Shown here: one piece after another, positions 6,301 to 55,110 of the stretch | Position numbering within the stretch: position 1 is the stretch's first letter | How the letters are laid out: every line of letters starts with the position of its first letter | DNA from: a virus | DNA: 64,000 nucleotides | Reading direction: 5' to 3' (one strand) | IMG/VR virus record: IMGVR_UViG_3300010151_000008 | Coordinates: 1 to 64,000 of that record | Program-made: the position numbers and the translations under genes | Notes under the pieces: model-generated | Told to the model about the DNA's origin: nothing | The model's input: only the letters and a program-made list of their open reading frames with translations | The model's database searches: none

Positions 6301-6614
6301 GGGGGTGACAAGGTTTCGACAGGGTAGAGAAACTGAATGGTGCAGGTTGTGCAATCTGAGATGATCACATTAAACTTAACTCAGAATTAACTTAACTGCC
6401 AACAACGCAGATTACGATTTAGCCTTAGCTGCTTAGTCCTTGGTTGCTCTTCACCAAGTGTTCAAGAAGAGCATTGATAAGAGAAACGCTTTTGTTAATG
6501 ATTGCGGATTAAAAAATTAACTATTTTGCTGCTTTAGAAAAAACAGCTAAACCTGTGAATGACCTGAAAGGGAAAATGCTTTGGACGTGGGTTCGATTCC
6601 CACCACCTCCACCA
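6301..6614 (+). ncRNA. ssrA: tmRNA (transfer-messenger RNA)
   Basis: 5' GGGGGTG pairs with 3' CACCTCC-ACCA with a G3-U70 alanine identity pair; GGTTTCGAC 5' motif; T-arm GTGGG-TTCGATT-CCCAC; tag ORF 6398-6436 ANNADYDLALAA*. Confidence 0.95.
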
Positions 6615-7699: not shown

Positions 7700-8061
7700 G
7701 AGCAATAAAATTAATAATAGTTCTTCTATTATTAACTTTTTCCTCCTGTAACGCTTACAGCGAAGGCCCCGATTTAGACCTAGATATGGATCAAACAGGT
7801 TGGGCGTGTGAGCATAATCTGTGGAATATCTGGCTATATAGAGAAACGTTCAATGTGCAACTGGTCCAAGCTTACTTTTACTCAGAACCAAATCAGCTGG
7901 GATGGTATCAGGCACTTCCAGAATCAGAAGAAAACTATTATCAGAAAAAATTTATAGATATAGGTAGACAATGCGCGCCATATGATGTAAAATACATTAT
8001 GTACTTCACAGATAAAGAGCCTGAAGTGGTTTGGATGCACTGGAATGAATCATCGGAGTAA
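7696..8061 (+). CDS. Putative lipoprotein
   Basis: MRAIKLIIVLLLLTFSS-C signal/lipobox. Confidence 0.7.
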   Translation: MRAIKLIIVLLLLTFSSCNAYSEGPDLDLDMDQTGWACEHNLWNIWLYRETFNVQLVQAYFYSEPNQLGWYQALPESEENYYQKKFIDIGRQCAPYDVKYIMYFTDKEPEVVWMHWNESSE

Positions 8062-8569
8062 TACTCGAAAACAACGTTATGACAAAAAACTTAAAAATGC
8101 CACGAAGTATCCGATTAGCCTCTGCGCTATTAACTTTCGTGTCGACGACAATTTTGGCTATCTTGTTAGGGCTGCCGCTTGCTTTGGCGCTGAAAGGATT
8201 TATGTTATTGGACACCTTCCTGACCGTCGTGCAGTAAAGGCATCATCTGGGAGCCTTATAGATTATGTGGAACTTATCCAGTTTTCTTCGCCGTATGAGT
8301 TTCTCACTTCCATGGAAGTCGGAAAAACTCAGATCGTATCTGCAGAACTGGCGGAAGGAGCTAAATCCCTTTCTTCTTATAATTTCAATTTTGATCGCCC
8401 TGTTTGTTTGGTTGTTGGCAACGAAGAGACTGGAGTCCCTGTTGATATTCTTCAGCGGTCCGAAGTAGTGCAGATAGATATGCCCGGCGTAGGATTCTGT
8501 CTTAATACAGCTCAGGCCGCCAATATATTACTTTATGAAGCCGTTAAACAATACAATGAAAAGAGATAA
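8045..8569 (+). CDS. SpoU/TrmH-family (SPOUT) RNA 2'-O-methyltransferase
   Basis: NFGYLVRAAACFG, LVVGNEETGV and IDMPGVGFCLNTAQAANILLYE are SPOUT motifs 1-3. Confidence 0.9.
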   Translation: MNHRSNTRKQRYDKKLKNATKYPISLCAINFRVDDNFGYLVRAAACFGAERIYVIGHLPDRRAVKASSGSLIDYVELIQFSSPYEFLTSMEVGKTQIVSAELAEGAKSLSSYNFNFDRPVCLVVGNEETGVPVDILQRSEVVQIDMPGVGFCLNTAQAANILLYEAVKQYNEKR

Positions 8570-8653: not shown

Positions 8654-8855
8654 AATAGGTAAAGACGATATAATCTTACAGGCAGCTATAGAATTTGGTC
8701 CTGATTACTTGTATAGTATAAAAGACAGTAACATGGGACCAACACTGTATGTGGAAGTTAACAACAAGGACGAATCGAACCGAATGAGAAAAGAAATTCC
8801 TCATTCATACGAAGGGCTAAGAACTATTGTGATTTGCAGCGAAAGGATAAATTAA
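8646..8855 (+). CDS. Hypothetical protein
   Basis: 69-aa ORF in operon context. Confidence 0.6.
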   Translation: MTEIGKDDIILQAAIEFGPDYLYSIKDSNMGPTLYVEVNNKDESNRMRKEIPHSYEGLRTIVICSERIN

Positions 8856-8861
8856 CAAGAC

Positions 8862-9269
8862 ATGACAAAGTGGAGCGACAAGACATTATTAAAATCAATA
8901 GCCAACCCATCGGGGGACGGGTACGAGATCAATATTAAGAATCCAGAGATTACCTTTATAGGAGTAAAAGACCAGCCGGATTTTGCTACTGTATACCTTA
9001 TTTTTTATCCTAAAAATTCTGTTATTGAATTAAAATCATTAAAGAGGTATTTTCAAAATTTTAGAAACACACTAGTATCTTATGAGCGGTTAATAAATGT
9101 AGTTTATGATGACCTGATAGAGGTCTATGATCCAAATCGCCTAAGAATCGAAATGGAATTTAGGCCCCGAGGTGGTATTTCTTCTCGGCTTGTGATAGAT
9201 TCTGATTGGTCTATTAGAGGGGGAGCCGAGAAGTTTAAAGATTGGGTTGGGAGAGAAAATCAATGGTAG
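8862..9269 (+). CDS. queF: QueF-like T-fold protein (preQ0 reductase homologue) lacking the catalytic Cys
   Basis: NP...PE-x-T...QPDFATV...ELKSLKRY...YE...F-x-PRGGI match unimodular QueF; the protein contains no cysteine. Confidence 0.8.
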   Translation: MTKWSDKTLLKSIANPSGDGYEINIKNPEITFIGVKDQPDFATVYLIFYPKNSVIELKSLKRYFQNFRNTLVSYERLINVVYDDLIEVYDPNRLRIEMEFRPRGGISSRLVIDSDWSIRGGAEKFKDWVGRENQW

Positions 9270-9608: not shown

Positions 9609-10072
9609 TGCGGTGTAGCTCAATGGTAGAGCATTCGGCTGTTAACCGAAGGGTTGCAGGTTCGAGCCCCGCCGCCGCAGCCATTCTCATGCTTTTTGTT
9701 CTTGGGGGGTGTTTTTTCACCTATGATGATGGACGCCGCGACGGTACCATCTCTTCTCACGAATATTATGATTATTATCCTTACATTATAGATGTAGGGT
9801 GGGACTGTTACGACGGGGGCCCCTTTGACGACTGGTATTTTTTGGCCCGAACTGATCATACATATGATTGGTATCAAATATACTACTTGAGGATTACGAT
9901 GTATTCCCTGTATGAAACAGAAGTTTTTGAATTTAAGGAGTACGACCACACGCGCGGCTACTTTGAGACTGACACTAATTTGTATAGAATTCAGTGCGGA
10001 GATCCTGTCGACATAGAATACACAGTTGTTGACAGAGACGGAAATTGGGAAAGTTTTACGCTTTACTGGTAA
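9608..10072 (+). CDS. Putative lipoprotein whose 5' end overlaps the tRNA-Asn
   Basis: AGGAGG SD 7 nt upstream, TAATG coupling, lipobox LGG-C at codon 35, Tyr/Asp-rich mature domain. Confidence 0.7.
   Translation: MRCSSMVEHSAVNRRVAGSSPAAAAILMLFVLGGCFFTYDDGRRDGTISSHEYYDYYPYIIDVGWDCYDGGPFDDWYFLARTDHTYDWYQIYYLRITMYSLYETEVFEFKEYDHTRGYFETDTNLYRIQCGDPVDIEYTVVDRDGNWESFTLYW
9609..9683 (+). tRNA. tRNA-Asn (GTT)
   Basis: Acceptor TGCGGTG/CGCCGCA, D-arm GCTC-AATGGTA-GAGC, anticodon arm TTCGG-CTGTTAA-CCGAA, T-arm GCAGG-TTCGAGC-CCCGC (one A-C mismatch), G73, encoded CCA. Confidence 0.9.
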
Positions 10073-35401: not shown

Positions 35402-38400
35402 ATGGCACGCACACCCAAGATAATAAGCAAATGGACGAGCAAAGAAACTGGTGTTGCTTATACGCAGTTTAATAAATCAAAAGTAGCAGTACAGACACAG
35501 TATACCACAGCAGATGAAATTGAACAAAACACTGAGGCGATTCTTGAACTGGGCGCCCTTGCTCTTATGCGCTATTATTTCCCCGGCTCTTGGTATCAGG
35601 TAGCTGCAGGGGTCCAGGGTGACACATATGGAAGTCTACTTTTTAGTAATTTATTAGACAAGCTTACGGTCTCGGCTACCGATTTTAATAGCCGGCCTAA
35701 GATGGGGCTTCGTGTTTTGGTGGCGTGCTCTATTGATTTGACAGATGAGGAAGAGACTGCCGAGATAATTCCTCCCGAGAGTGGCCCGCCAGCTGATTTA
35801 GAGTTAGCATTGGATTATTATCTTTCTACTGGGTCGACTGATATCAAAAAAGTTTCGAGTACCGGCCGATCTATGACATTTTCAGCGGACACCCTCAACG
35901 AAAACCTGAAATTGATTGGCGCCGCTTTTACTAAATATCATAAACAACATCGTTTTTTTAATGGGCAGATTAAGCCTTCAATAAATTTTTTAAAGGAATT
36001 TGATCTTATATCAAGTTCAATTCATGCCATTCTGCGTCTGGCTGCCCAGAACTATATTGACACAGGTATTCACTCAGGTACAACATTTAAAGTTGATTTT
36101 AATGGTGATTATTCTATTGTAAATATAAAAGCCATAACTCCTGAAGGGCGCTACCTATCTCTTCCTGTGGGGTTGCTGCCGTCTTTGGGCGCCGCAGCGT
36201 TGTCTTCAAGACAAACTAATGTTTATCTGGCGTCTTTTAAAGATATATTAATCAAGTTAAGAACTCGGGGCCCGACTCAAGATTCTTATGCCAACTTTAT
36301 TAATTTTATAAAACAAGTATCCTCCCTCGGCCCGACTAAATACAAAATTAATTATTCGGGGCCGTCCCGAACCGCCGATGCCGGCGCTACCGCGGCTGCT
36401 ACCGCCACCCAAGGAACGGCAGCCGCAACCGGCACTGCTACTGGGGTGGATCCAGATGGCCCCCCAAACGCAGAACTTGGTCTGACTCCGGAGGAGAAAG
36501 AGAAACAAGAAAAGGTTATAACTCCCAAAGAGGCGGCAGAAATTCTCGAACAACAGATGAAAAAGGTCGACAAGGCCGCCCAAGAGGTCTCTAAAGAAGT
36601 TGGCAAGAAGTTGCGCGAGTTACAGGGTACCGAAGGTTTTCAAATATTCACGATGATCATCAATCGGATAGGGATTGATTCTCTTGTAAAGGAGGGGCTC
36701 CTTTGTATGCTCTTCGGAGTTGATTTTAGTATACCCGATCTTTATTCTGACATAAGAGATATGCTTTCCGCTGGCGATGGACTTTTTAGTAAGCCAAAGA
36801 CAGGCGCCCTTGTGGGCTTTGATATTCCTAAAGTGGACATGAAGTGGGAAATTTTTAAGATTACGGGAAACATTCAGCCGATGATCAAGAAGGCTCTTTT
36901 GGATGCCGTCTTCGGCGCAGTACGAGGGATCCTTGAAGCCGTTACAGAATTAATTCGCGAACAATGTGAAGCTCGCGATACCGGCAATTTTGGCGACATA
37001 GACCTTGCTAGCCTATTACAAGATAAGCCGGCCGGCGGTACTGGACTACTTGGTGATGGTTCTGGGCCTAATGGTTGTTTTTCTGAATTCGGCTTACCTC
37101 CAACGTCAGGGAACAATTTTCTTTCCCAGGTATCTCAAATCTTGACCCCGATCGAGGCATGCCAGCTTTTGACGGGGTCAGCCTCGGCCGCTGTTATGTC
37201 CGCGGTCCAAAATTTCATTCAAAATTATTCTAGCGCTACAATACAAAACGCTCTTGGGTCGCCCTCTGAAATAGCCGCCTTCTTTTTATGTATAGGGGAC
37301 CAACTCGATGTAAACGATCTTTGTCGGGAAGCTGCCGAGCGCGATATAATCCCCAACGCAGAGGAAATTTGTATTACAGGTGGGGACATTTTAGATGCTG
37401 TGGGTCAACATAATGTTAACACTCTTCTCGATATGCTTAAGGATGGCATCGCGGTGGAAATGCCAGAGATCAACTTACAGTGCCCCGACTCCGAGAACTA
37501 TATTCCCAACCCCTTTGTTGATCGATCGATCCCACAGTTAATGAGCGCTCTAATAGAGTCAATAGCCGCCAGCTTTTATTTCGCGGCCGACGGCACGAAG
37601 GCGGTTCTTTTGAGATCGCAGTTGGGACAGAATGCTACAGCAAATGCTTTGTTAGAGGCTTGCTTAAGCGAGTCAGGTTCAATGCCGGCCTCCGAGGCTC
37701 GCGGCGGAGCTGGCGCCACTCCCGGTGATATTATTGCTATGATCAGTGAGGGCATCCAGGAAGTAGTGTCAACAGACCTTAACGCTGCGTCCGATGCATG
37801 CGGTATCACCTTGGGAGAAATATTCCGAGGAACAGACGATCTAGCCGAGGTATTGGCAACATTTCAAGATGTCATAGAAAACTTTGATTTCTCGGCTTTG
37901 GGAGACATGTCCGCACAGTTGGGCTCGAACGCAAGCGATTTGGCCGCGGCGCAGTTGAGACTCGACTTTCCAGAGGGTTATAAAGAGGATTTCTTAGAAT
38001 TTATTCCTACGGCTATCAAGACTGAACTCTATAATGGCAACTATTTGTACAATTTCAACACAGCCTATCAATCTCCAGCTTTTCATGTAGAAGCGGAGGG
38101 ACCGCCATTCACGTATACGCTCGACGATGGAGACGACGACGGCGACGGCACCCCTAACTACGACGACCGCGACGAAGGCGGCACCGGCGAACCGCACGAG
38201 AACTACGATATGCACGCTCTGCAGAATGCTGCCGACGCCGCGCAGCACGCCGCCATGGCCCGGACTCGATACACGACCACCTTCGCACTCCCAGCTGAGG
38301 GATATCAGGCCAATGCAAATGCAGCTCAGATGCAAGAAGAGTTAGAAGCCATAGAGGAATGGGAATTCAATCATGGTAACTCTAATATGATAGGACAATC

Positions 38401-41400
38401 GAGGCACTTTGAAGAGTGGCTGAAGGGAAACCGGCAAGGTGACCTTTGGTGGGAGGAAGGCCAGCAGGACTGGTGGTCTCCCGAGGGCTATTCGTGGTAT
38501 CAGTGGTTTAAGCTTTGGGCCGAGCAAAGAATTGAGCGCGATGAGGAACAAGGGCCTGATTGGTGGATGCGGTCGACCTTAGCCCTCCCGGCTGATACGC
38601 GTGGCGCGCTCCCCGGGTTTGGCAATAAACAGCTATTAGGTCCGGGGTATGGGCCCGAAGATCCGCAGCCGGAGGTGGATGGCTACCAGCAAGGCTGGTG
38701 GGATATGTACCGTGCCCCAGAGCGCTGGGCCACAGCGACGCAAGCAGAAATACGCGCAGACGAGAGAGTGTGGAAAATATATCAAACGCTGTTCTCGCCA
38801 TGGCTCCGTGCCAATCCAGACGACTCCATTTTGGCCGGCGAATGGGACTACGGCGAGGTCTGGTGGATCGCAAATATTCCATTTGAGTATGTCCCCCGAC
38901 CTCCCGGCCCGGGTGGCGGTGGCCCTCAGCCAATTGCTCACATCGGGCGGTCTACGATGTTCGGTGCACCCGAAGGGATAGGTGGCCGCTCTGCCGGCTT
39001 CTCTGCTGGAACTGGAATAAAATTCCTGTTCCGGAAAGAATATGCGATTCAAAAGTATGAGAGCATTCATTTCCCGAGTTTTCAAGAAGTAACAGAAGAT
39101 AACCAGAATATATTTGTTGCCAGCGCCCCTGTGGCCTTTCGTGGAGAGATTCCTTTTATAGAGGGGCGTCAGGGACTGCAGACGACTACTGCAACAGAAT
39201 TGTATGCCGTGAACCAATCCGCGCACGGATCGGTAATTTCTCCAGATAGAATCGCAGAACGCGACGCCAATCCAGCGCGCGGCCTTTTTGCTGACATAAT
39301 CCACTCAGCATTCGCGAAAAATCTGCTAGAACACGGGAATAGTGACCTAGCCGCGGCCGCGAGGGTCACAGCCGCCGGCGGCGAATACACCTCCGGCATC
39401 TTGGCCGAATTCTATAACAACCTAGAACACCAATATTATTATGCAGCCATGGCCGGAACTATGAAGCAAATGAGTGCTTACATAGTGAAAAATGGTGCAT
39501 TTACACTTGATAGAGTACTTAAGATCCTGGTGGTTCCGGAGAGTGCTAACGATGCTACAGAACAGTTGGGAGATCTACTAGATTTCAAAAAGCTTGTTCG
39601 TGAAGTGCAGGATGAATATGTAGATGCTATTTGCTACGACGGTCTTAGTCAAGACGAGGTTTTGATTAATTCGCTTGTGTACGGAGCTATAGAACTATTT
39701 TTACAAGTGCATCTGGTTGAGTTTTATTTACAAAATGTGTTTGTTTTGTCGGCATTTGATTTAGACGGGCTGTACGAACTAGAATTGGTGATGGCATATA
39801 TTTCTTCCTCCATACAAAATACGATTGCTACTTTTTTGCAGGGGATAAGTGCCTCAGGGGCCCAGTATAATTTGTTTGAAACGAATTTTCAAGATGCGGT
39901 AGTGGAGCATGTTAGCAGAAAAATTATACGCGACGGCGGCGCTCCTATCGATGGTGAGATTCTGTCATCTTTGGGAATGTCAGAAGGCGATTTGGGAACC
40001 TACGAAGCTAGCATTAGATATCTTCTGGCTAAAAGGATGAAGGAATCCGCCCCAGCTGTATCTAAAATTATCTCCCAATGTTCACTTGGGTCTGTCGACG
40101 AAGTCTTCTTGAAGGCGGGAATTGGCATTTCTAAACCATTTTTGAAAGGCCTAGGAGCCGATTGGGGACTTAGTTCTACTAGTCGATATCTAGTAGCATC
40201 GCCAGGTGATCGGGATCTTGGGTTTACCGAGGAAGATGCTCAAATTATTGCCTATGGTGGATTTAGATTTGAGAAAATAATTAGATTCACACCGCATACA
40301 TCCGGATATTACGGAGGCTCTGAGGAAAATCCAGATGTACACCTAAGGGTGGACAAGGAGCTGGGAACCATTGCAGGGGGCAATTGGGTAGCTAACGACA
40401 CCTTTAAGATCGGCTCGGCCTATCACACCGATTCACCAATAACACAAAACTTTGTTTCATTGGACAAGCTAATTAGAGTTTTAGACGACCCCGCGGTTAC
40501 GGATAACATGACCATTCTGGGTAATCCAACGTTATATTATCGATTGGTATATTATGTTCCGATGCAAACTCGATCCGAGTATTCCGCCAACTCCTCCGGC
40601 GAAATAATTTTCGCGGACTCGGCAACTAAAAACCAAGAAATAATGGACACGATCGAGGCGTACTTCCTCGATGCTCGTGACGGAGATGACGCCATAGTGA
40701 GAGACACGCTCGATACCCTTATCAACGACCAAGCTTCATTTGTTCCGTTCTTGGTGGGCCCCGGCGGAGGGGACGCATCGATGTCGCACGCCGTCGCCGC
40801 GCCCGCATCGAGACAGAACATGACGATAGGAATTCCCATTTTAGAAGTTGAGTCGGGGGTAAATCTACCCAACAGTATGCGTCTTGATACTGATTCGAGC
40901 GCTCCCAAGCGGTACTGGGGCGCCCCCACAACGGGTGGATTATCGTTGATAAGGTCTTTGGCAGAAAAGGATTTCTTAGATGGAGATGTCGAGATCATCA
41001 TGAATGACGAGGTTGTGAAAGCACTGTTTAATAAGAGTCTGAGCAAAGATGTTATTCTGTCTACCCTCTTGTTTAATAATTTTTATCTAACAAAATCACA
41101 CTTTAGGGGAATCGATACGATCTTTAAGTCCTGCAAGGAATCGGTGGCCGCACTAATGATGCAAATACAGCAAGGCCGCGGCCTCCAGCCAGACGCTGGT
41201 GCAGCCGGCATCGCTCAAATACAGAATGCTTTAGCTAATCAAGGTCAGGGGGGAGGTAGTGACGATCCCAACGTGGCGGCCTATATCATAAAAGCTATAA
41301 TCCAAACTCCTTTTGATATCCTTAAGGGCTTAGCCGAGATAATGGATCCACATGTTGTTATAACCAAAATGATAAAAGATATAAGTGGTATGGTGATAAC

Positions 41401-41836
41401 ACAGTTTATTGAGGTTTTAGAGTCAGCATTTGGCGCCGTCCCGGGCCTAGCACAGCTTGACATTGATGTGGAGAAACTAGTAGAAGTTCTTTTCTGTACC
41501 ATGAATGAAGAAATAAAGAAGAACGGGCCCATGTCAAACGCCGCGGCAGAAATATCAGAGATGTTGTGTCAAGACATCAATCCGTGGCCCACCTTTACGA
41601 CAAAAGGAATCCAGTTTACTGGGACCATTCCCGGCATGTTTATGGCCCCTCCGGGCCCTCTGGGAATTTTCTATCTTATATATGGATTACTTAAAAACGA
41701 GATTGACAGAGGTATTGACGATGCCTTCGCCGCCCCAGCCGGCGAAACAGACGAATTCTGTATTGATGTAGAAGCTGTTGTCGAAGGCGAAGAAGATACT
41801 GGCTGCGTACCGTTCACTGCGCAGCGCGACGACTAA
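35402..41836 (+). CDS. 2144-aa virion protein of unknown function (baseplate-associated)
   Basis: Long uninterrupted ORF between spike-like and gp25-like genes; helical; hydrophobic C-terminus. Confidence 0.75.
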   Translation: MARTPKIISKWTSKETGVAYTQFNKSKVAVQTQYTTADEIEQNTEAILELGALALMRYYFPGSWYQVAAGVQGDTYGSLLFSNLLDKLTVSATDFNSRPKMGLRVLVACSIDLTDEEETAEIIPPESGPPADLELALDYYLSTGSTDIKKVSSTGRSMTFSADTLNENLKLIGAAFTKYHKQHRFFNGQIKPSINFLKEFDLISSSIHAILRLAAQNYIDTGIHSGTTFKVDFNGDYSIVNIKAITPEGRYLSLPVGLLPSLGAAALSSRQTNVYLASFKDILIKLRTRGPTQDSYANFINFIKQVSSLGPTKYKINYSGPSRTADAGATAAATATQGTAAATGTATGVDPDGPPNAELGLTPEEKEKQEKVITPKEAAEILEQQMKKVDKAAQEVSKEVGKKLRELQGTEGFQIFTMIINRIGIDSLVKEGLLCMLFGVDFSIPDLYSDIRDMLSAGDGLFSKPKTGALVGFDIPKVDMKWEIFKITGNIQPMIKKALLDAVFGAVRGILEAVTELIREQCEARDTGNFGDIDLASLLQDKPAGGTGLLGDGSGPNGCFSEFGLPPTSGNNFLSQVSQILTPIEACQLLTGSASAAVMSAVQNFIQNYSSATIQNALGSPSEIAAFFLCIGDQLDVNDLCREAAERDIIPNAEEICITGGDILDAVGQHNVNTLLDMLKDGIAVEMPEINLQCPDSENYIPNPFVDRSIPQLMSALIESIAASFYFAADGTKAVLLRSQLGQNATANALLEACLSESGSMPASEARGGAGATPGDIIAMISEGIQEVVSTDLNAASDACGITLGEIFRGTDDLAEVLATFQDVIENFDFSALGDMSAQLGSNASDLAAAQLRLDFPEGYKEDFLEFIPTAIKTELYNGNYLYNFNTAYQSPAFHVEAEGPPFTYTLDDGDDDGDGTPNYDDRDEGGTGEPHENYDMHALQNAADAAQHAAMARTRYTTTFALPAEGYQANANAAQMQEELEAIEEWEFNHGNSNMIGQSRHFEEWLKGNRQGDLWWEEGQQDWWSPEGYSWYQWFKLWAEQRIERDEEQGPDWWMRSTLALPADTRGALPGFGNKQLLGPGYGPEDPQPEVDGYQQGWWDMYRAPERWATATQAEIRADERVWKIYQTLFSPWLRANPDDSILAGEWDYGEVWWIANIPFEYVPRPPGPGGGGPQPIAHIGRSTMFGAPEGIGGRSAGFSAGTGIKFLFRKEYAIQKYESIHFPSFQEVTEDNQNIFVASAPVAFRGEIPFIEGRQGLQTTTATELYAVNQSAHGSVISPDRIAERDANPARGLFADIIHSAFAKNLLEHGNSDLAAAARVTAAGGEYTSGILAEFYNNLEHQYYYAAMAGTMKQMSAYIVKNGAFTLDRVLKILVVPESANDATEQLGDLLDFKKLVREVQDEYVDAICYDGLSQDEVLINSLVYGAIELFLQVHLVEFYLQNVFVLSAFDLDGLYELELVMAYISSSIQNTIATFLQGISASGAQYNLFETNFQDAVVEHVSRKIIRDGGAPIDGEILSSLGMSEGDLGTYEASIRYLLAKRMKESAPAVSKIISQCSLGSVDEVFLKAGIGISKPFLKGLGADWGLSSTSRYLVASPGDRDLGFTEEDAQIIAYGGFRFEKIIRFTPHTSGYYGGSEENPDVHLRVDKELGTIAGGNWVANDTFKIGSAYHTDSPITQNFVSLDKLIRVLDDPAVTDNMTILGNPTLYYRLVYYVPMQTRSEYSANSSGEIIFADSATKNQEIMDTIEAYFLDARDGDDAIVRDTLDTLINDQASFVPFLVGPGGGDASMSHAVAAPASRQNMTIGIPILEVESGVNLPNSMRLDTDSSAPKRYWGAPTTGGLSLIRSLAEKDFLDGDVEIIMNDEVVKALFNKSLSKDVILSTLLFNNFYLTKSHFRGIDTIFKSCKESVAALMMQIQQGRGLQPDAGAAGIAQIQNALANQGQGGGSDDPNVAAYIIKAIIQTPFDILKGLAEIMDPHVVITKMIKDISGMVITQFIEVLESAFGAVPGLAQLDIDVEKLVEVLFCTMNEEIKKNGPMSNAAAEISEMLCQDINPWPTFTTKGIQFTGTIPGMFMAPPGPLGIFYLIYGLLKNEIDRGIDDAFAAPAGETDEFCIDVEAVVEGEEDTGCVPFTAQRDD

Positions 41837-45564: not shown

Positions 45565-48500
45565 ATGAGCTTAAAGGATACATACAGACGCCAGTTAGAA
45601 AATCTTCAAAATATTTCTAACAAGAGCGAAGAGCAAATAGCTGCGGAAGTAGAGTCTGTAGGGTATCACGAACAGGACATAATCAAAGAAGAGAGGTTTA
45701 TTCCTCGCACCGATTATTCGAGACCAAGCGCGTTTGCTCGCTACGGATCAGCTACCGAGTATTATCAACAGTCTATAAAAAGAGTTTACAGTACATACCC
45801 CTACGACGGCTCACTCAAAGAGAGGTTAGAGTGGGAAAATGATTCCAATTACTTAGATCTATATCTTTTTGAGCAGCGCTATCCTCGCACGAACGGGTAC
45901 GTAATTTTATCAGCCGACGGTTGGGGCACCCAGACTGCCACGACAGGCGGCTACGGGATGCCCTCCTCTCAAGAGTACATATCATTTATTGGCGGGCCCA
46001 ATGTAAATCCGGGAGGAATGAGCCCCATAGCGCTTCAGTTTACTGGATCAAACTATTGGGACCCAGATAAAAATAGAGTTTCGAACCTGCAGTTCGATCT
46101 GGAAAACAATGGAGCTACGGTTGAGTTTTGGCTCAAAAAAGACAGCTTTGACGCAAGCTTAACAGAGAAGGAGGTTGTTTTTGACCTCTGGAATAATGAG
46201 CTATCTTCTAGCGATTCATACGGCCGTTTTAGATTAGAGTTGTCCTCTTCCACAACACCTGGAGGCGAGGGGCCGCTCTTACTCACAGTGATGTCTGGTG
46301 CAACCGGGTTCCAGTGGGAACCTGTTGTCGTTGGCTCCGCTTTCACGACTGCCTCTATAGCAGATGGCAATTGGCACCACTATGCGGTAACTGTAAAATC
46401 TGCTAGCGCAGGGGTGCTAACAAAATTCTATGTCGACGGCGCCCTACACGCGGAAAATACGCTTGGTGTCGCCGGTATAAATAATATTGGGGGTGCCCTC
46501 AAGGGACATATCGGTGCACTAATTATTGGCCCCTCGGGGACCGTGGGCCCCGGTACGCCCGAAGAATCGGCCTTCGCTTGGACCGGCGCCGGGAAACTCT
46601 CCGCATCCATGGATGAGTTCAGGTACTGGAAAACTCAGAGAAGTTCTAAGGACATAGGAAGATATTGGATATCGCAGGTTGGGGGTGGTACCAACACAGA
46701 TCCAGCCCCCGATTCGCACGAAACTAACCTAGTGAACACAGATCTTGGAGTTTACTTTAAGTTCAATGAAGGAATCACCGGGGTCGAATCCGCGGATAGT
46801 ACCGTCTTGGACTACGCAGGCCGAGTTTCCAATGGCGCTTGGACGGGCTACGGTGAAAATTCCAGGAATACGGATTCTGCTATAGTAATTTCTAAAGCGG
46901 CTGTAAAAGAATTTAAAGATCCTATTATATACTCCTTCCATCCTGAAGTTGTATCGCTGAAGACACAGCTAGAAGCTACTGGATCCTATCATGATGTTCG
47001 CAACAATACGTCCATCTACAATTCTATTCCCGGATGGGTTCAAGAGGAAGATGACGAGAGTGCTGGAGAACTTAGGAAGTTAACTCAAATATTGGCTAGC
47101 TACTTTGATACGTTACAACTTCAGATTGATTCTGTCAATTCACTCAAAGATGTGGTTTATTACGGAGATAGTCAGAAACCTCTTCCGTTCGCCAACAAAT
47201 TATTAGAATCTATGGGTCTTATGACTCCTGAAATGTTCCTAGATGCAGATGTGCTAGAGAAGCTGGCAGATCGCAGCGAGAAGCATCTGTATGAAAAGTC
47301 ACTTAATGATATTAAGAATACAATCTATCAGAACATTTATAATAATCTAACTTATATTTATAAATCCAAAGGAACTGAAAAAGCTTTTCGTAATTTAATT
47401 CGCTGCTACGGAATTGACGACGAGCTAATCAAATTAAGCCTATATGCTAACAACATAGAGTATGAACTTCTAGATAACTCACGAAATGTTGTTACTTCGA
47501 AGAGATTCGTCAACTTTAATACAAAAGATAATCTAGGCGCCACCATCTACCAGAGTTCGGCTTCTAGTGATGCCAATTCCGTAGCGTTTATAGCCGGTTC
47601 TACTAATCTGACTGGTGGTTTTGCTTTTACCACGGAAGTTGATGTGTTGTTCCCCCGAAAAGCGCCCCCAGGTCAAGAAAACTACATCGATACCAATTTC
47701 ATAACAGCCTCTGTCTTCGGAATTCACGGTGACGCTTCCGGCAGTGAAGACACCACATGGGCAACTCCAGATGCGGTAAATTTCCAGGTTTTTGCAGTCC
47801 GAGATGAATTAAGATCTCCAAATGTTCGATTTGTGCTGACGGGAACAGCCGGGGGCTTCATGCCGCCCACCCTGGTTAGTGATTTATACGAGGATACCTA
47901 CAACAATACTAAGTGGAACTTGGCTGTACGTATTAAGCCTGAAAAATATCCTTACGAAAACTGGATTACTAGTTCGGTGAACGGCGATTATATCGTCGAA
48001 TTACGAGGTACCAACACTCAAGATGGGGTTGTACTCAATACGTTTACGCTCAGCTCTTCGATTTCATCGCCACCGCCGGCGTTCGTTAGCGGCTCCCGGC
48101 GCCTCTTCGTCGGCGCCCATCGACAAGACTTTACCGGCTCACTCCTACAGCGTTCTGATGTTAAGGTGGGCACCGCGCGCAGCTGGTTAACATATCTAGA
48201 TAATAAAACTCTTCTAGAACACGCCCAAGACATTCACAACTACGGAACACCGAATCCGCAGTGGTACGCGTTTCCATTTCACCCCAGCGCCTCATTCGGA
48301 GAAATCCCACAACTTGATACGTTAGTATTAAATTGGAACTTTAATCAGAATACGGGCTCGAACGCATCTGGCCAGTTCGGGGTAGCCGACTTCTCGTCCG
48401 GCTCTACTCAGTTAGCCACATCCCAGTACGATTGGCTCGGCCCTATTCTTCTTAATCAACACCCAGGTCGAGGAGACTTCTTTCCGGCGAACTCTATCAA

Positions 48501-51500
48501 GGCAATAGATAAAGATTATATTACCAACACGAAGCAAAACTTACCCGAGAACTTACAGTCCAAGGACATGATTTCGGTTCTTTCACAAGAGGAACAAGAG
48601 GCTTTTGGGCGTACAACTAGACCTGTTACATTCTATTTTGCATTTGAGAAGAGCCCCTATCAGGTTATTTCTGAAGAGATGATAAATTATTTTGCGTCTA
48701 TGCGGGACATGCACACCCTAATAGGTGAACCAGTTAATCGATATAGAATAGAATATAAGGCTCTCGGCAAGATGCGTCACGCCTTCTTCTTGAATGTAGA
48801 GAACGATAGAATTGATTTTGATAAATTTTATGAGTTTTATAAGTGGTTCGACAGTTCTCTTTCTTTAATGTTACAACAGCTTGTTCCGATTTCAGCCGAC
48901 GTGGCCGGAAACATCCGAACCATTATTGAAAGCCATATCTTTGAAAGAAACAAATATCAATCCAAGTTCCCGACCATAGACACTATGGACGCAGATATAG
49001 AGGGATCTTTTAATACGATTTTGAATGCTTCTCCCGGCTGGCGCTATAATCACCACCCTATTGATGGAGCGGAGAATAAAAACGCCCACTGGTGGAAGAC
49101 GAGAGCTAGCCGAGAAAAAACCAAGCTTCGCACTGGAAATTACGAACTAGACTGGAGAAGGCAGAGAATCTTTGAGGATAGTGATTATGAATATGAACGA
49201 GAAATAAAGGTTCCTTATAGATTTGAAGCACGTGCTGGAATACAACAGCTATCTCCGCCTCATATTATACATAGCGGCCCTAATTATCACCCCAACAAGA
49301 AGTACAATTACGTATTTACAGCCACACGGCCTGCAGGCCCTCTCGTAGAGGGAACAAATCTGCCGGCCAACATTATGCTCGCATTCGATGAGGATGTAGA
49401 ACGGTTTGTGGATGTGGTGGATGATTTAGAGTTAACCCCTAAGCGCCGCATCGGGTGGGGGATCAACGCTAGAATCAACAAGGACTTGTCTGGCAGCGCT
49501 ACTTACGAATTTGCGAAGGGAAGCCTGCTGGCGCCGTTTAGTTTGTACAGTAGCTCCGTTACGACGGGTTATAACAAGCAGGTTGTGGAGAAGTTCACAC
49601 CCGGCGTAATGATTACCAATTTACATCATGATGTATATGGTGTGACTCACGAAGTCCCGCTCCAGGGCCCCTTCCCCGAAACGTATGTTGGCGGCCGAGA
49701 ACATCGCCATGTTCCTATTAACAAATTCGATTCCTCCAAAACGGGACCAAACAATCTAGATTCTCCTGCCGACCGGCCCGAAGGGTTTAAGATCTTGTTA
49801 GGCAGCTGCGACGGAATCACTACCACCTCCGGCGCCTTAGGTATCGTAGATCCTCAGTATCCAGATCCAGATTCGCCAGCAGTTTCTCCGCCTTATCTCT
49901 TCGACCGACCTAAGGGCAATATGTCACGTAATGTGGGTACCAAGCGTCCAGTTAATATACGCAACATTCGGAAGAACTCCCCGGGGAACTATAGCCAGAA
50001 CTACGATGTTGTGTCGACCAATGCACGATCATCAAATGATCTCTTCTTTAGAAAGCAGACATTCGATTTCTCTCTTTATCCTCAAAGCCCATACCCTCGG
50101 CTGCCGATTGTAGATCGTCACGCAGTACAAAACATCAGAGTTAGAAACACAAAAGCCATCTCGATTGACGATAGTCTTAATTATTATGTTTTTACTGCTC
50201 CGGCGGCAATGAACACAAATAAGAAAGAAACGTGGTCTTGTTGGCTGAATTGTACCAATCCCGGTGAGCTTAATTACTTTATATTGGATGTATCTGATCG
50301 TTACTTTGTGATCAATGCCGATAACACCTTCACTTTTGCCGCTTATTGGACGGGGCCTGTTGATGGGATTTGGCAGACTGATGCGGCGATTACAACCGGC
50401 AACGAGTGGGTGCATGTGGCTATAACCTACGATGGTAATTCCAGTACAAACCATCCTGTCGTCTATATTAATGGCGAAGCGGTAGCAATAACCCGAACAT
50501 CCGCGGAGCCAACTGGCGATTTAGAACCCTACTTCGGCGGTATCGGCATCGGCTATGCCGGCGCCCATGCTTTTGAGGGCTATATATCTGATCTGGCATT
50601 TTATAATACTAACTTGCTTGCCGATGAAATTAAGGCGATTTATGGCAATTCAACGTTAGACCTGATTAATTATGGTCCACCCCGCGTTGCATCCAACCTT
50701 ATAATGTGGTGGAGAATGGGCGACGGCCCGGGCGATACGGTTGGCACCATCATCGACCAGATGGGCACTGTAAATTTGGCTGCCGGAGGTTCTCCTTCTA
50801 TCGTTAATATAAGCGCTGGCGATTGTTTGGTTACCGCCAACGAAAACAACTTCGCTCTGCCTGACAGATCTGGCAAGAACTCTAACCAAACCGTTTTTGT
50901 AAATCGTTTTGCCGGCTCGGGCTATGAGGTGATGTCGAGAGGCTATATGGATCCAGCTCATGAAGAGAAGTCTGTATATAACGTTTTGCCGTATCACAAC
51001 TTATCGATTCTAAACTATGGTTTTCCTGAATCAGCATCAGCAGACCCCTCCATCGCCACCGCAATAGTGGTTGTAGATCAGATAGGCAAGAACAGAGGAA
51101 GAAACCAACGGCTTACTTTACACTGTGGCCAGTTTGGTCACGATGCGGCATATGGAACAATTCCCGCGGACACCTATGTTACTGTTCCTTCATACCAGAA
51201 AACAAACCGAAACCCCCGGTCTCGGATAAAGCAGCTAGCCGACGGCTCTTATGTGACAGGGGTGGTGTACGATAACGGATGGGTAACCCACCCAATTCCG
51301 CGTTCGGCGCGGCAGTATTCTTGGATTACGGCTAGCCTTTCTCCGGATGTTGGCACCGAGCTGTTTGGCTATTCGGCCCTAAGCGGCGGATTTGCTCAGA
51401 GTTTGCCTTTAATTAGCGCAAGCCAGTTTGGATCTGTCCATTGGGCCTCGGGGTCGACAGTCCTCCCTAGAACCTTGGGGTATGATCAAAACATCGTGGG

Positions 51501-54500
51501 CCAAGGCGCCGTACTCTTCGGCGCCCCAGTCACCGCATCTGACTTTTATCCCACCACATTTGCCGGCATTAACGGGAATATTTCCGAACCGGTGGACATT
51601 TCCTCTCACAATCTGGGGTATCCTCTCGGCACCCCTCTCGTCCCGACGGACTTCTCCTCGAAGGAACCCCAATATCGGAATCGTTCTTTTTGTTCGGTCA
51701 CCAACCTCGCTAGTCTCGCCGGCGCCCCGGTCTTTAACTCCCTCATGCTTCACCGCAACGGGCCCTATGGTTGGCCCACGTGGAAACAAATTCGAGCCGG
51801 CCAGACTCCGGTTGCAAGACGTCTGAGAAAAAAGAATTTAGTCGTCGTTAGAAATGAGCCAGAACCATTTACCTACGTATATCCTCAATATTCCTCGGGC
51901 GGCGTAACGCTGCCCCGCAACCAAGTTCGAGTGTATCCACTCAAAGGCAATACCTTCACTTCATACATCGAACAGCCAATAAGCAGTCGACACAAAGCAC
52001 TAGAGTTTGTATACAATAATCACTCTCGTAGTGCTCCGGGGGTGGATAATAATGTTATTGCTAGGGTGTCATGGGCAAACAATTTAGACTATTTCTCCAA
52101 CGAGGGGCTTAATAATCGACTTAACAAGATCCCAAATGTTACGCTCAACCAGCCTTATAAGACTCTCGTTAACTTTACTCTAGACGCAGACAAAAACAAT
52201 TCTGATACATTAGTTCAATATACAGAAAGAATTTATCCTCGCGAGGTTAACGCCTATCAGAATAGGGTTCGAACCCGAACAGACTATAGCATCTCGGATA
52301 TATGGGATGATTCCCGGCCCCTTCGCTCGAAAGACGCGGGGGTAGTAAACTCTCTGGGGTACCCAATCTATTCGGCCAGTGTATGGCATCTAGATGCTCA
52401 CAATAATTTTACCACTCGTCCAGCATATCCAGAGTACATAAATTCGGTCTTCGTTGATTCTGCGGGAGAGCTGCAAAATGATTATTGTCGATTTATCAAA
52501 CATACTCTTCAAGGCTCGGACCAGAGCCAGTGGGCGCGCACATCTCCAGCGCCGGCTGCCCTATATGCCATGCGTATCCCTATGGGCTCGTCTTCCGGCG
52601 GGGAACTGCCGGTCGGTGTTGTCATGCCGGTGTGGGGAGGAGATACGTATTGGGATGCTCCCGAGCAAGCTGGGAAGAAACCATATCAAGTATATGAAGA
52701 ATATGCAGAGTTTATACGCCTAAAGGGCAAAGACCACTCACTGGTGCCGGAATTTAGAATAAGCGAGCATATTGAAAAATATATTGAAGACGGATCTGAC
52801 TGGCTTAAAGATATTGATGACTCCTCTCCGGGAATGTTTGAAATAACGGGCGCTGCCATCTCTGATAGCGCTCAAACCAATTTCTATAAAGTATATGGCC
52901 ACACTGACTTCTTAAAATATTTTAAAGTAATAGATGATGATCTCGACAATAAAAATATTGGCCAAGGCCTCTCACTTAATCGTCGAGCAATAGAGATAGA
53001 GTGCTCAGCTTATCTTAAGTTCCTCCCCTATAAGGGATTTTACCCCGCAGAGCGGACTAGAGAGTTGGCAAAAATCTTTAACGATTCTTGTGATGATTTT
53101 GTTAACAAAGCCGGCTATCCGTCTCCGACCTATGCAGCAGCCGTCGGCAGCTCCTGCTCCCTCACCCCCCTCACCGAGACTCAAAAAATACTTAAGCGCG
53201 CCATTATAGAGCCCCTCTTTGCTCCGGGAATTGTGCATAACACGGTAAAGTCGGGAATTGCCGTGAGTAGCTTTGTTATAACCAACAGTGCTTCGTGTCC
53301 AACCATTGATCTTACTGCTTCATGGCTAGCTAAGCCATTTTCAATCCTTACCGAATTACCTGAGGGAAATGTTGATTTTGGCGCAGGAGCGAATGGGTGT
53401 CTAAACCCTGTTGAAATTCAGACCGGCGGCGGATACGAAGACCAGAGAGGGTATAAATTTAGACGAATTCCTTTTGAGGCCGCTCTTCGGCCGGGAGAAT
53501 ATCTGAGCAAGTACAATATTTATGATAATGGGCTTCCTCCCTCCGCGAGTCTTTTAGATCCAGCTGTCATCGGCGCCGCTCTCACCTACAATCGCCTTCA
53601 TGTTAACTGGAGCGGCGGTGGCTCGGATCTCTATAGATTGGCCTCGGACAATTATCACTGCGAGGTGGTTAACTTCTTTTCTCCAGGGCTTACAAGTTTT
53701 GTTTCAGCTCGCGAAGATGAGTTTTCTGCTATGCAGTCGGGGTCGCTCTATGCCATGACGCTAAGACTGGGGCGCCCACTCAATGCTGACTTGGTTCCCA
53801 ATAGATCTTTGTTCGAAATGTACGAGAGGGCTTCCGCTTTTGGCCCCCCGTTTGCAGGAACTGCTGATACCATTTTATCCTGGGCCGTGTATTCAGCTAG
53901 TTTTGATCCGCTAACTCCTCCATACTTTAATGGAGTCGGGGAAGTAACAATTTTATATCAAGCAAAATACGATGGAAAACCGGAGCTTGATGATATCTTA
54001 TCAACTTCGGAATTTATCTATGACCGGTCCCGGGACAATGTGCCTATCGTCCCCCCCGGCTTCGAGCCCATCCTCACTGCCGGCTATATATACGGAATGC
54101 AGATGGATCAAAGTTATAATTTGGTTGATAAGATAATAGAGGTGCCGCCCGGAACAGACAGTAATAGGGAGCGTTGGCTTATTCAGAGTAAATTTGAGAC
54201 TCCGGTGTTAAATTTTGCTGGCGTAAGCCCTCTTACCATCACACAGCCTGCCACGGGATCTGTTAACCCCGGCGTCACACCTGATGTTATATCCAAGGGT
54301 ATGTGGCACCAGTATGGCTCAATTCCATCTGGGCGAGAGGCTGTTGTATCTTCTATCAAGGTTCCCAATTCGCTAGTATCTCCTACTTTCGGCGCGCTCT
54401 CTGCTAGCACCCCGGCGGGGCCCGAGTATCATTCGTTGGCCAGCGTGGTCGGCTTCGACACGACAAATTCTAAGCAATTGGGCCCCCTGCGTACCATGCA

Positions 54501-55110
54501 GAGAATGGAAGAAGCAATAATAGCTGTACCGTTCACCGTTAAAAGAAATCGGCGGAAGTTCTTCCACCCCCGAAAGAGATCGAGCGATTACAAAGAGATT
54601 TTAAAAATTCTTGACAAGTATCTGTTACCACCCAAGTTAGACTTTGTGACCAACGAGGGACTAAAGCCGATACTGTTTTATGCCTTTGAATTCGGGGCGG
54701 ATCTGTCTCAACAGGACCTAGCGGATATTTGGCAGAATTTGCCTCCCGATATTGGTCTAAATTTTGAAAGTTCTAAGGCAATTATTCGCGAAGAGAAGAT
54801 AATTAAAGAGATGTATAATTCTATCGATACACTGCAATGGCTTGTTTTTAAGGTTAAGAAAAAGGCCGCAAAGGATTATAATAGGTTTGTTAAACAGAAC
54901 CTGACTGACGATTTAGATTCTGTTACGCCAAATATTGTTTCCAAGTACTCCTATAACTGGCCCTACGATTACTGCTCTTTGGTGGAATTAATTAAACTAG
55001 ATGCCACGGCACAGTATGAAACAGAAACAGAGGGAACATCAGAAGTGGATCTTTTGATTAGAGCCCACAATCCGGTGATTCCTCCCATAGAACCTCCGGA
55101 GATGGGATAA
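45565..55110 (+). CDS. 3181-aa baseplate wedge/receptor-binding-like protein with LamG (concanavalin-like) domains
   Basis: TVEFWLK...DGNWHHYAVT...FYVDG...MDEFRYW and EWVHVAITYDG...VYING...GYISDLAFYN; IYKSKGTEKAFRNLIRCYG (gp7/P2 gpI-like). Confidence 0.8.
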   Translation: MSLKDTYRRQLENLQNISNKSEEQIAAEVESVGYHEQDIIKEERFIPRTDYSRPSAFARYGSATEYYQQSIKRVYSTYPYDGSLKERLEWENDSNYLDLYLFEQRYPRTNGYVILSADGWGTQTATTGGYGMPSSQEYISFIGGPNVNPGGMSPIALQFTGSNYWDPDKNRVSNLQFDLENNGATVEFWLKKDSFDASLTEKEVVFDLWNNELSSSDSYGRFRLELSSSTTPGGEGPLLLTVMSGATGFQWEPVVVGSAFTTASIADGNWHHYAVTVKSASAGVLTKFYVDGALHAENTLGVAGINNIGGALKGHIGALIIGPSGTVGPGTPEESAFAWTGAGKLSASMDEFRYWKTQRSSKDIGRYWISQVGGGTNTDPAPDSHETNLVNTDLGVYFKFNEGITGVESADSTVLDYAGRVSNGAWTGYGENSRNTDSAIVISKAAVKEFKDPIIYSFHPEVVSLKTQLEATGSYHDVRNNTSIYNSIPGWVQEEDDESAGELRKLTQILASYFDTLQLQIDSVNSLKDVVYYGDSQKPLPFANKLLESMGLMTPEMFLDADVLEKLADRSEKHLYEKSLNDIKNTIYQNIYNNLTYIYKSKGTEKAFRNLIRCYGIDDELIKLSLYANNIEYELLDNSRNVVTSKRFVNFNTKDNLGATIYQSSASSDANSVAFIAGSTNLTGGFAFTTEVDVLFPRKAPPGQENYIDTNFITASVFGIHGDASGSEDTTWATPDAVNFQVFAVRDELRSPNVRFVLTGTAGGFMPPTLVSDLYEDTYNNTKWNLAVRIKPEKYPYENWITSSVNGDYIVELRGTNTQDGVVLNTFTLSSSISSPPPAFVSGSRRLFVGAHRQDFTGSLLQRSDVKVGTARSWLTYLDNKTLLEHAQDIHNYGTPNPQWYAFPFHPSASFGEIPQLDTLVLNWNFNQNTGSNASGQFGVADFSSGSTQLATSQYDWLGPILLNQHPGRGDFFPANSIKAIDKDYITNTKQNLPENLQSKDMISVLSQEEQEAFGRTTRPVTFYFAFEKSPYQVISEEMINYFASMRDMHTLIGEPVNRYRIEYKALGKMRHAFFLNVENDRIDFDKFYEFYKWFDSSLSLMLQQLVPISADVAGNIRTIIESHIFERNKYQSKFPTIDTMDADIEGSFNTILNASPGWRYNHHPIDGAENKNAHWWKTRASREKTKLRTGNYELDWRRQRIFEDSDYEYEREIKVPYRFEARAGIQQLSPPHIIHSGPNYHPNKKYNYVFTATRPAGPLVEGTNLPANIMLAFDEDVERFVDVVDDLELTPKRRIGWGINARINKDLSGSATYEFAKGSLLAPFSLYSSSVTTGYNKQVVEKFTPGVMITNLHHDVYGVTHEVPLQGPFPETYVGGREHRHVPINKFDSSKTGPNNLDSPADRPEGFKILLGSCDGITTTSGALGIVDPQYPDPDSPAVSPPYLFDRPKGNMSRNVGTKRPVNIRNIRKNSPGNYSQNYDVVSTNARSSNDLFFRKQTFDFSLYPQSPYPRLPIVDRHAVQNIRVRNTKAISIDDSLNYYVFTAPAAMNTNKKETWSCWLNCTNPGELNYFILDVSDRYFVINADNTFTFAAYWTGPVDGIWQTDAAITTGNEWVHVAITYDGNSSTNHPVVYINGEAVAITRTSAEPTGDLEPYFGGIGIGYAGAHAFEGYISDLAFYNTNLLADEIKAIYGNSTLDLINYGPPRVASNLIMWWRMGDGPGDTVGTIIDQMGTVNLAAGGSPSIVNISAGDCLVTANENNFALPDRSGKNSNQTVFVNRFAGSGYEVMSRGYMDPAHEEKSVYNVLPYHNLSILNYGFPESASADPSIATAIVVVDQIGKNRGRNQRLTLHCGQFGHDAAYGTIPADTYVTVPSYQKTNRNPRSRIKQLADGSYVTGVVYDNGWVTHPIPRSARQYSWITASLSPDVGTELFGYSALSGGFAQSLPLISASQFGSVHWASGSTVLPRTLGYDQNIVGQGAVLFGAPVTASDFYPTTFAGINGNISEPVDISSHNLGYPLGTPLVPTDFSSKEPQYRNRSFCSVTNLASLAGAPVFNSLMLHRNGPYGWPTWKQIRAGQTPVARRLRKKNLVVVRNEPEPFTYVYPQYSSGGVTLPRNQVRVYPLKGNTFTSYIEQPISSRHKALEFVYNNHSRSAPGVDNNVIARVSWANNLDYFSNEGLNNRLNKIPNVTLNQPYKTLVNFTLDADKNNSDTLVQYTERIYPREVNAYQNRVRTRTDYSISDIWDDSRPLRSKDAGVVNSLGYPIYSASVWHLDAHNNFTTRPAYPEYINSVFVDSAGELQNDYCRFIKHTLQGSDQSQWARTSPAPAALYAMRIPMGSSSGGELPVGVVMPVWGGDTYWDAPEQAGKKPYQVYEEYAEFIRLKGKDHSLVPEFRISEHIEKYIEDGSDWLKDIDDSSPGMFEITGAAISDSAQTNFYKVYGHTDFLKYFKVIDDDLDNKNIGQGLSLNRRAIEIECSAYLKFLPYKGFYPAERTRELAKIFNDSCDDFVNKAGYPSPTYAAAVGSSCSLTPLTETQKILKRAIIEPLFAPGIVHNTVKSGIAVSSFVITNSASCPTIDLTASWLAKPFSILTELPEGNVDFGAGANGCLNPVEIQTGGGYEDQRGYKFRRIPFEAALRPGEYLSKYNIYDNGLPPSASLLDPAVIGAALTYNRLHVNWSGGGSDLYRLASDNYHCEVVNFFSPGLTSFVSAREDEFSAMQSGSLYAMTLRLGRPLNADLVPNRSLFEMYERASAFGPPFAGTADTILSWAVYSASFDPLTPPYFNGVGEVTILYQAKYDGKPELDDILSTSEFIYDRSRDNVPIVPPGFEPILTAGYIYGMQMDQSYNLVDKIIEVPPGTDSNRERWLIQSKFETPVLNFAGVSPLTITQPATGSVNPGVTPDVISKGMWHQYGSIPSGREAVVSSIKVPNSLVSPTFGALSASTPAGPEYHSLASVVGFDTTNSKQLGPLRTMQRMEEAIIAVPFTVKRNRRKFFHPRKRSSDYKEILKILDKYLLPPKLDFVTNEGLKPILFYAFEFGADLSQQDLADIWQNLPPDIGLNFESSKAIIREEKIIKEMYNSIDTLQWLVFKVKKKAAKDYNRFVKQNLTDDLDSVTPNIVSKYSYNWPYDYCSLVELIKLDATAQYETETEGTSEVDLLIRAHNPVIPPIEPPEMG

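Follow-up and report, generated by a model that had tools for sequence, protein, structure and literature searches.

The closest described relative of the protein studied here is QueF of the unimodular, YkvM type (EC 1.7.1.13), to which the B. subtilis enzyme (PDB 4F8B) belongs. A census published in 2017 defined the QueF family jointly by Cys55, Asp62, Glu97 and the QueF motif, and sequences missing any of these were dropped as 'non-QueF' (PMC5372742). A survey of phage QueF in 2023 found the characteristic residues, one tyrosine excepted, to be conserved in all phage sequences surveyed (PMC10516641). Cys55 is essential, and the C55A enzyme is inactive on preQ0 (PMC13740343). A T-fold paralogue of QueF with a changed reaction is QueF-L, the archaeosine synthase of Crenarchaeota (PDB 5JYX); it still works through the catalytic Cys and a thioimide, and its NADPH-dependent reduction is gone (PMC10516641). 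More distantly, GTP cyclohydrolase I (FolE) belongs to the same T-fold superfamily, and it is found among the structural matches of the phage protein model described below. FolE is a zinc-dependent ring-opening enzyme of about 190–220 aa without an NADPH motif, and it handles purine and pterin in one site, showing that the T-fold accepts pterins.

The gene described here lies in the IMG/VR phage record IMGVR_UViG_3300010151_000008, which is 92.7 kb long and about 51% complete; the window, the whole stretch of DNA that was analysed, is its first 64 kb. The gene and its parts are as follows.

8862..9269, plus strand: gene for a QueF-fold (T-fold) protein, stop codon included, an intact ORF of 135 aa with zero Cys (profile matches, alignment and AlphaFold model)
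8943..8987, plus strand: active-site loop P28-A42 (PEITFIGVKDQPDFA), from the alignment to B. subtilis QueF
9027..9050, plus strand: QueF/NADPH-binding motif E56-L-K-S-L-K-R-Y63, kept (alignment; motif definition from PMC5372742)
9078..9089, plus strand: S73-Y74-E75-R76, in which Ser73-Tyr74-Glu75 correspond to Phe95-His96-Glu97 of B. subtilis QueF
9198..9266, plus strand: clade-specific C-terminal extension D113-S-D-W ... R119-G-G ... D127-W ... W135, without counterpart in canonical QueF, modelled at low confidence

The protein matches Pfam QueF (PF14489) at E = 1e-21, and it scores 91.7 bits with the NCBIfam model TIGR03139, 'preQ(1) synthase', for which the cut-off is 86.9, so annotation pipelines would name it QueF. 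There is also a weak NCBIfam match to GTP cyclohydrolase I. The AlphaFold model, built on 28 relatives, is a T-fold with a pLDDT of 81.6, and of about 50 over the last 20 residues. Among PDB structures it is closest to B. subtilis QueF 4F8B, with a TM score of 0.77, about 35% identity and a similar size, and QueF-L is the structural match of rank 35. The protein thus has both the T-fold and the unimodular architecture expected of QueF.

The alignment to B. subtilis QueF (4F8B/4FGC) places Gly34 (8961-8963) at the position of the thioimide nucleophile, Cys55. Phe32 stands where canonical QueF has Ser, and the active-site loop is one residue shorter than in the B. subtilis enzyme. The catalytic acid Asp62 is kept as Asp40, Glu78, the first residue of the QueF motif, as Glu56, and the substrate anchor Glu97 as Glu75, together with the QPD segment and R103-G-G. 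Beside the anchor, the stacking Phe95 is replaced by Ser73 and His96 by Tyr74. The protein therefore has the Asp, the Glu and the NADPH motif that define QueF (Asp40, Glu75 and E56-L-K-S-L-K-R-Y63), but not the defining Cys55, and it carries a C-terminal tail of its own. This is the reverse of QueF-L, since here the Cys is lost and the NADPH motif is kept. The preliminary description of this DNA had reported a QueF homologue of 135 aa without any Cys, quoted three motif strings, and noted that HE has become YE while the Asp, the substrate-binding Glu and ELKSLKRY are retained. We confirm the complete absence of Cys from 8862-9269(+), all three strings are present as written, and the alignment bears out the substitution and the retained residues.

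Is the missing Cys peculiar to this phage gene? A search of 5.8 billion proteins matched 747 clusters, of which the best 120 are 64–95% identical to the query. No Cys occurs anywhere in 108 of these 120 closest clusters. The loop motif P-E-x-T-F-x-G-x-x-x-Q-P-D-[FY] was found in 118 of them, and none of the 118 has Cys at the catalytic position. The close homologues thus clearly do not keep the Cys, which rules out the local error or decay that the preliminary description had considered; what they form is a large Cys-less clade. Gly occupies the Cys55 position throughout an aligned set of 28 members, and likewise in 28 of 28 bacterial genome loci of the clade. The 28-member alignment has 47 invariant positions, among them the C-terminal D-S-D-W...R-G-G...D-W...W motif. 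Phe32, Gly34 and Asp40 are invariant in the clade, where the canonical group has Ser, Cys and Asp. Relative to canonical unimodular QueF, the clade has therefore switched Ser to Phe32, Cys to Gly34 and Phe to Ser73, on a scaffold of Glu, Asp, NADPH motif and RGG common to both. Two loci from Nitrospiria and Gammaproteobacteria MAGs (L019 and L020) have P-E-C-T-F-L-G-V in the loop; this Cys precedes the Gly by four residues and is not at the catalytic position.

Hundreds of relatives at 55–95% identity, from phages and bacteria, have the same F-x-G / S-Y-E signature and C-terminal motif. When 1.84 billion proteins were read and the best 150 of the 50%-identity clusters taken, 109 representatives were near full length, and the co-varying signature is present in about 56–62 of these 109. 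A quick tree puts 45 canonical sequences on one side and the Cys-less group apart, and this group may have had a single origin. In the ESM Atlas, only QueF-named clusters were matched, of mixed bacterial and Uroviricota origin. Loss of an essential catalytic Cys is what one would see in a decaying or inactive QueF remnant without function. However, the hundreds of intact relatives, the 47 invariant positions, the conserved C-terminal motif and the conserved positions in bacterial operons effectively refute that explanation, and we consider its probability negligible. Judged by these comparisons, the phage gene belongs to a coherent Cys-less sister family of unimodular QueF that is under selection. 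A literature search found no paper describing a Cys-less QueF family. The family is undescribed, widespread and probably mis-annotated.

The gene is also present in at least 80 further viral contigs, of up to 332 kb. Its chromosomal carriers include Marinilabiliales, Cytophagales (of the Cyclobacteriaceae type and the Marinoscillum type), Pleionea, Syntrophorhabdus aromaticivorans, SAR202, Nitrospiria and Nitrotoga MAGs, a Flavobacteriales MAG and two CPR MAGs. One CPR copy, on a 400-kb contig of a Parcubacteria MAG (L002), is 67% identical to the phage protein and lies beside a ParB-N-like gene among unannotated ORFs; its place may be within a prophage or a mobile region, in which case it would not be native.

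The gene context of the family is that of methionine and SAM, and not queCDE/tgt as for unimodular QueF. In three Cytophagales genomes (L005, L205 and L206), the gene separates the two parts of a split metH, in the order metH-N, gene, metH-C, with a SAM riboswitch ahead of each operon; L206, with the gene at 8697-9065, comes from the complete Cytophagales genome G119. In the Marinoscillum-type genomes, the order is metK, gene, DUF6580, metH, and the one locus of this type that was scanned for RNA families (L023) has its operon behind a SAM-I/IV riboswitch. The DUF6580 protein between the QueF-like gene and metH in this riboswitch operon has about 186 aa (L023:8391-8951; also in L207-L209). In Pleionea, the gene is divergent from metH. 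Among 81 viral loci, 23 have MetK, AhcY (SAH hydrolase) or a Pfs-like phosphorylase within 6 kb, mostly adjacent and in at least four gene orders. A DUF2452 protein of about 142 aa is encoded directly beside the QueF-like gene in 13 viral loci (L142:6366-6794 and 12 others), and it may be a partner of the QueF-like protein. In Marinilabiliales, Syntrophorhabdus, Pleionea, the Flavobacteriales MAG and a further Cytophagales carrier, G018, the surroundings of the gene gave no riboswitch match. The neighbours are uninformative in the Parcubacteria, Syntrophorhabdus, SAR202, Nitrospiria and Flavobacteriales loci. The phage protein is 58–66% identical to the operon-embedded bacterial proteins, and all core signature residues are common to both.

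What is the relation of the family to queuosine synthesis? The preliminary description had proposed a preQ0/preQ1 sponge, a dominant-negative subunit that poisons host QueF, or a new T-fold activity. The last of these is now favoured, and the other two find no support. More broadly, the protein could act in 7-deazaguanine metabolism as a sponge, as a dominant-negative partner of host QueF or by reducing a 7-substituent other than a nitrile, and so change Q-tRNA or DNA modification during infection. QueF is the closest protein in both sequence and fold, a SpoU methylase gene lies upstream, and tRNA-Asn(GUU) (9609-9683, plus strand) begins 340 nt downstream. Furthermore, Syntrophorhabdus aromaticivorans (G002; L003) has a strong QueC match of 244 bits, with the Cys-less protein as its sole QueF-family member, and in this organism a role in queuosine may exist. 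However, dpdA, folE, queC and queD, which the preliminary description had proposed to look for elsewhere in the genome, are all absent from the 92.7-kb record, as is tgt. The same family is chromosomal in bacteria inside SAM-riboswitch metH and metK operons. Canonical QueF, bimodular or as a second unimodular copy, accompanies it in 9 of 15 carrier genomes, and it occurs where QueC does not: the Cytophagales carriers G018, G103 and G119, the last of them one contig of 6.2 Mb, lack both a true QueC and a canonical QueF. A sponge would have no need of a strictly conserved NADPH motif and Asp, and the inactivity of the C55A enzyme on preQ0 speaks against a role in 7-deazaguanine metabolism. As for the tRNA, in 39 of 60 related viral loci neither a tRNA nor a tmRNA lies within 6 kb of the gene, and Q-family tRNAs make up only 4 (all Asn) of the approximately 45 tRNAs near the gene in these loci, with Thr, Ala, Gly, Leu and Arg as common or commoner. 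A specific link of the gene to Q-family tRNAs was rejected for this lack of enrichment, and the tRNA-Asn near the phage gene is probably just part of a phage tRNA region. We regard a 7-deazaguanine role as improbable; the Cys-less family has probably left queuosine synthesis.

The distribution of MetF, the FAD-dependent methylene-THF reductase (MTHFR; PF02219), was compared between carriers and non-carriers in the Cytophagales. MTHFR is present in none of 8 Cytophagales carriers but in 15 of 16 Cytophagales non-carriers larger than 3 Mb (Fisher p = 1e-5, or 7e-4 when five small genomes lacking both genes are counted), a contrast in which the carriers represent only about two to four independent lineages and include several incomplete MAGs or SAGs. 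The same 8 carriers all have FolA and keep MetH, and FolD is clear in 7 of them, with a sub-threshold match only in G018. The gap is therefore specific to MetF and does not reflect general incompleteness. Similarly, Syntrophorhabdus aromaticivorans has full-length MetE and SHMT and no MTHFR, and three more carrier MAGs gave no clear MTHFR match. MetF is encoded by none of 33 long viral records that carry the gene.

We suggest that the Cys-less QueF-fold protein is a flavin-free NAD(P)H methylene-THF reductase, and in the phage an auxiliary metabolic gene; we put the probability of this reading at roughly 45%. We infer the substrate, the reaction and the role in infection from the sequence signature, the coherence of the family, its fold, the gene contexts and riboswitches, and the counts of MetF, QueC, FolA and FolD. 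Because the phage protein is so similar to the operon-embedded bacterial proteins and has their core signature residues, the reading would transfer from them to the phage. Several observations count against it. MTHFR is present in 10 of the first 15 carrier genomes (six Marinilabiliales, Pleionea, two SAR202 and the Flavobacteriales MAG). Of five further carrier MAGs, including the three just mentioned, Nitrotoga gave a clear MTHFR match and another a sub-threshold match only, so that the gene and MetF occur together in 11 carriers outside Cytophagales. In Marinilabiliales, the gene stands beside an RlmD-like methyltransferase, with no metH nearby, and the CPR carriers have no methionine synthase. 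A 7.2-Mb Cytophagales non-carrier, G020, has MetH but neither MTHFR (PF02219) nor a member of the Cys-less family; it may have another route to 5-methyl-THF, or an assembly gap. In the lineage of the phage itself, methyl-cycle genes are missing from the neighbourhood of the gene. Finally, the T-fold binds purines as readily as pterins. The Cys-less protein may be an additional isozyme in the majority of carriers and the only MTHFR in a minority, or it may catalyse a neighbouring folate reduction.

The latter possibility can be put more definitely. Instead of being an analogue of MetF, the protein could use NAD(P)H to reduce some other folate or pterin, one that supplies or repairs the methionine/SAM cycle. 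The substrate might, for example, be an oxidised 5-methyl-dihydrofolate that is re-reduced, methenyl-THF going to methylene-THF, or another dihydropterin. Such an enzyme is consistent with the retained residues (NADPH motif, Glu anchor, Asp) as well as with the gene contexts, met operons and riboswitches in bacteria and metK/ahcY in viruses, and it explains why many carriers keep MetF. It leaves unexplained, however, the absence of MTHFR from 8 of 8 Cytophagales carriers and from Syntrophorhabdus, and in genomes without MTHFR, the 5-methyl-THF on which MetH or MetE depends must still come from somewhere. We consider this reading unlikely, but less so than a role in 7-deazaguanine metabolism. 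Replacement of DHFR and replacement of FolD by the Cys-less family were each considered and rejected, since, of 19 carriers, 16 have FolA and 18 have FolD.

How might a QueF-type protein without Cys act as a methylene-THF reductase? In T-fold enzymes, one and the same Glu anchors purine and pterin ligands, and the pterin N5 takes the topological place of C7 in 7-deazaguanine. The carbon of a 5-iminium would therefore sit at the position of the imine carbon in the second, Cys-independent half-reaction of QueF. In the mechanism that we propose, the family would no longer reduce preQ0. The T-fold, the Glu that anchors a 2-amino-4-oxo-pyrimidine ring, whether of a purine or a pterin, the general-acid Asp and the NADPH motif are all kept, and NAD(P)H would donate its hydride directly, without a flavin, to the N5-bound one-carbon unit of 5,10-methylene-tetrahydrofolate, giving 5-methyl-THF, which is the MetF reaction. 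The Asp would serve as the proton donor to the reduced 5-iminium of the ring-opened methylene-THF. The changes of Cys55 to Gly and of Phe95 to Ser, from bulky to small residues, would enlarge the pocket, in keeping with a substrate larger than preQ0, and the C-terminal tail, rich in Trp and Arg, could accommodate the pABA-glutamate moiety.

MetF and the flavin-independent mycobacterial Mfr have a TIM-barrel fold and a length of about 300 aa, and neither is related in sequence or fold to the 135-aa T-fold phage protein. The likeness to them would lie in the proposed reaction, in the metH-operon position and in a distribution complementary to that of MetF in Cytophagales. That direct NADH reduction of methylene-THF without a flavin is feasible is seen from the mycobacterial Mfr (PMC11094777). 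An MTHFR role would thus be one of analogy and not of membership in the MetF family, as the phage protein matches only QueF-type models. A literature search on QueF or the T-fold in combination with MTHFR found nothing relevant.

In the phage genome, the gene stands between the SpoU methylase gene (8045-8569) and tRNA-Asn, which is followed by genes for a cytidylyltransferase, a PIN-PhoH protein and a PD-(D/E)XK nuclease, and then by a glycan-modification cluster. Further features of the window are the following.

6301-6614, plus strand: tmRNA (Rfam, 125 bits), with the tag ANNADYDLALAA
14397-24498, plus strand: cluster resembling glycan or nucleotide-sugar modification, with two GT4-type glycosyltransferases, a sulfotransferase-like protein, an FkbM-type methyltransferase, a DegT/EryC1 aminotransferase and a class I methyltransferase
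35402-41836 and 45565-55110, plus strand: giant ORFs of 2144 and 3181 aa

Genes for tmRNA also lie near the QueF-like gene in seven other loci (L124, L130, L139, L143, L147, L150 and L167), each with its own tag. The SAM methyltransferases of the phage, SpoU and two in the glycan cluster, make it a consumer of SAM. The 92.7-kb record contains no metK, ahcY or pfs, and MetK is found in only 2 of the 33 long viral records with the gene. A weak tblastn match of viral MetK at 45571-45831 lies inside the 3181-aa ORF and is spurious. As a methylene-THF reductase, the phage enzyme would raise the supply of methyl-THF to the host methionine synthase and so sustain SAM for the SpoU, FkbM-type and class I methyltransferases of the phage. 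The argument for such an auxiliary role, boosting methyl-THF, would be one of orthology to the bacterial genes.

Since the phage protein passes the TIGR03139 cut-off, hundreds of phage and bacterial genes are probably mis-annotated as preQ1 synthase, and counts of viral queuosine and 7-deazaguanine genes are probably inflated. We tentatively propose that the Cys-less family could be a third, structurally unrelated class of MTHFR, a replacement for MetF in some bacteria and a widespread auxiliary gene of marine phages for methionine and SAM supply. A T-fold methylene-THF reductase would close the gap left by the absence of MetF from several lineages of bacteria. It would be a new enzyme class in one-carbon metabolism and a clear case of a catalytic half-reaction re-used on a new substrate. 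If this is true, many marine phages would tune the methyl-group supply of their hosts with a gene of 400 bp.
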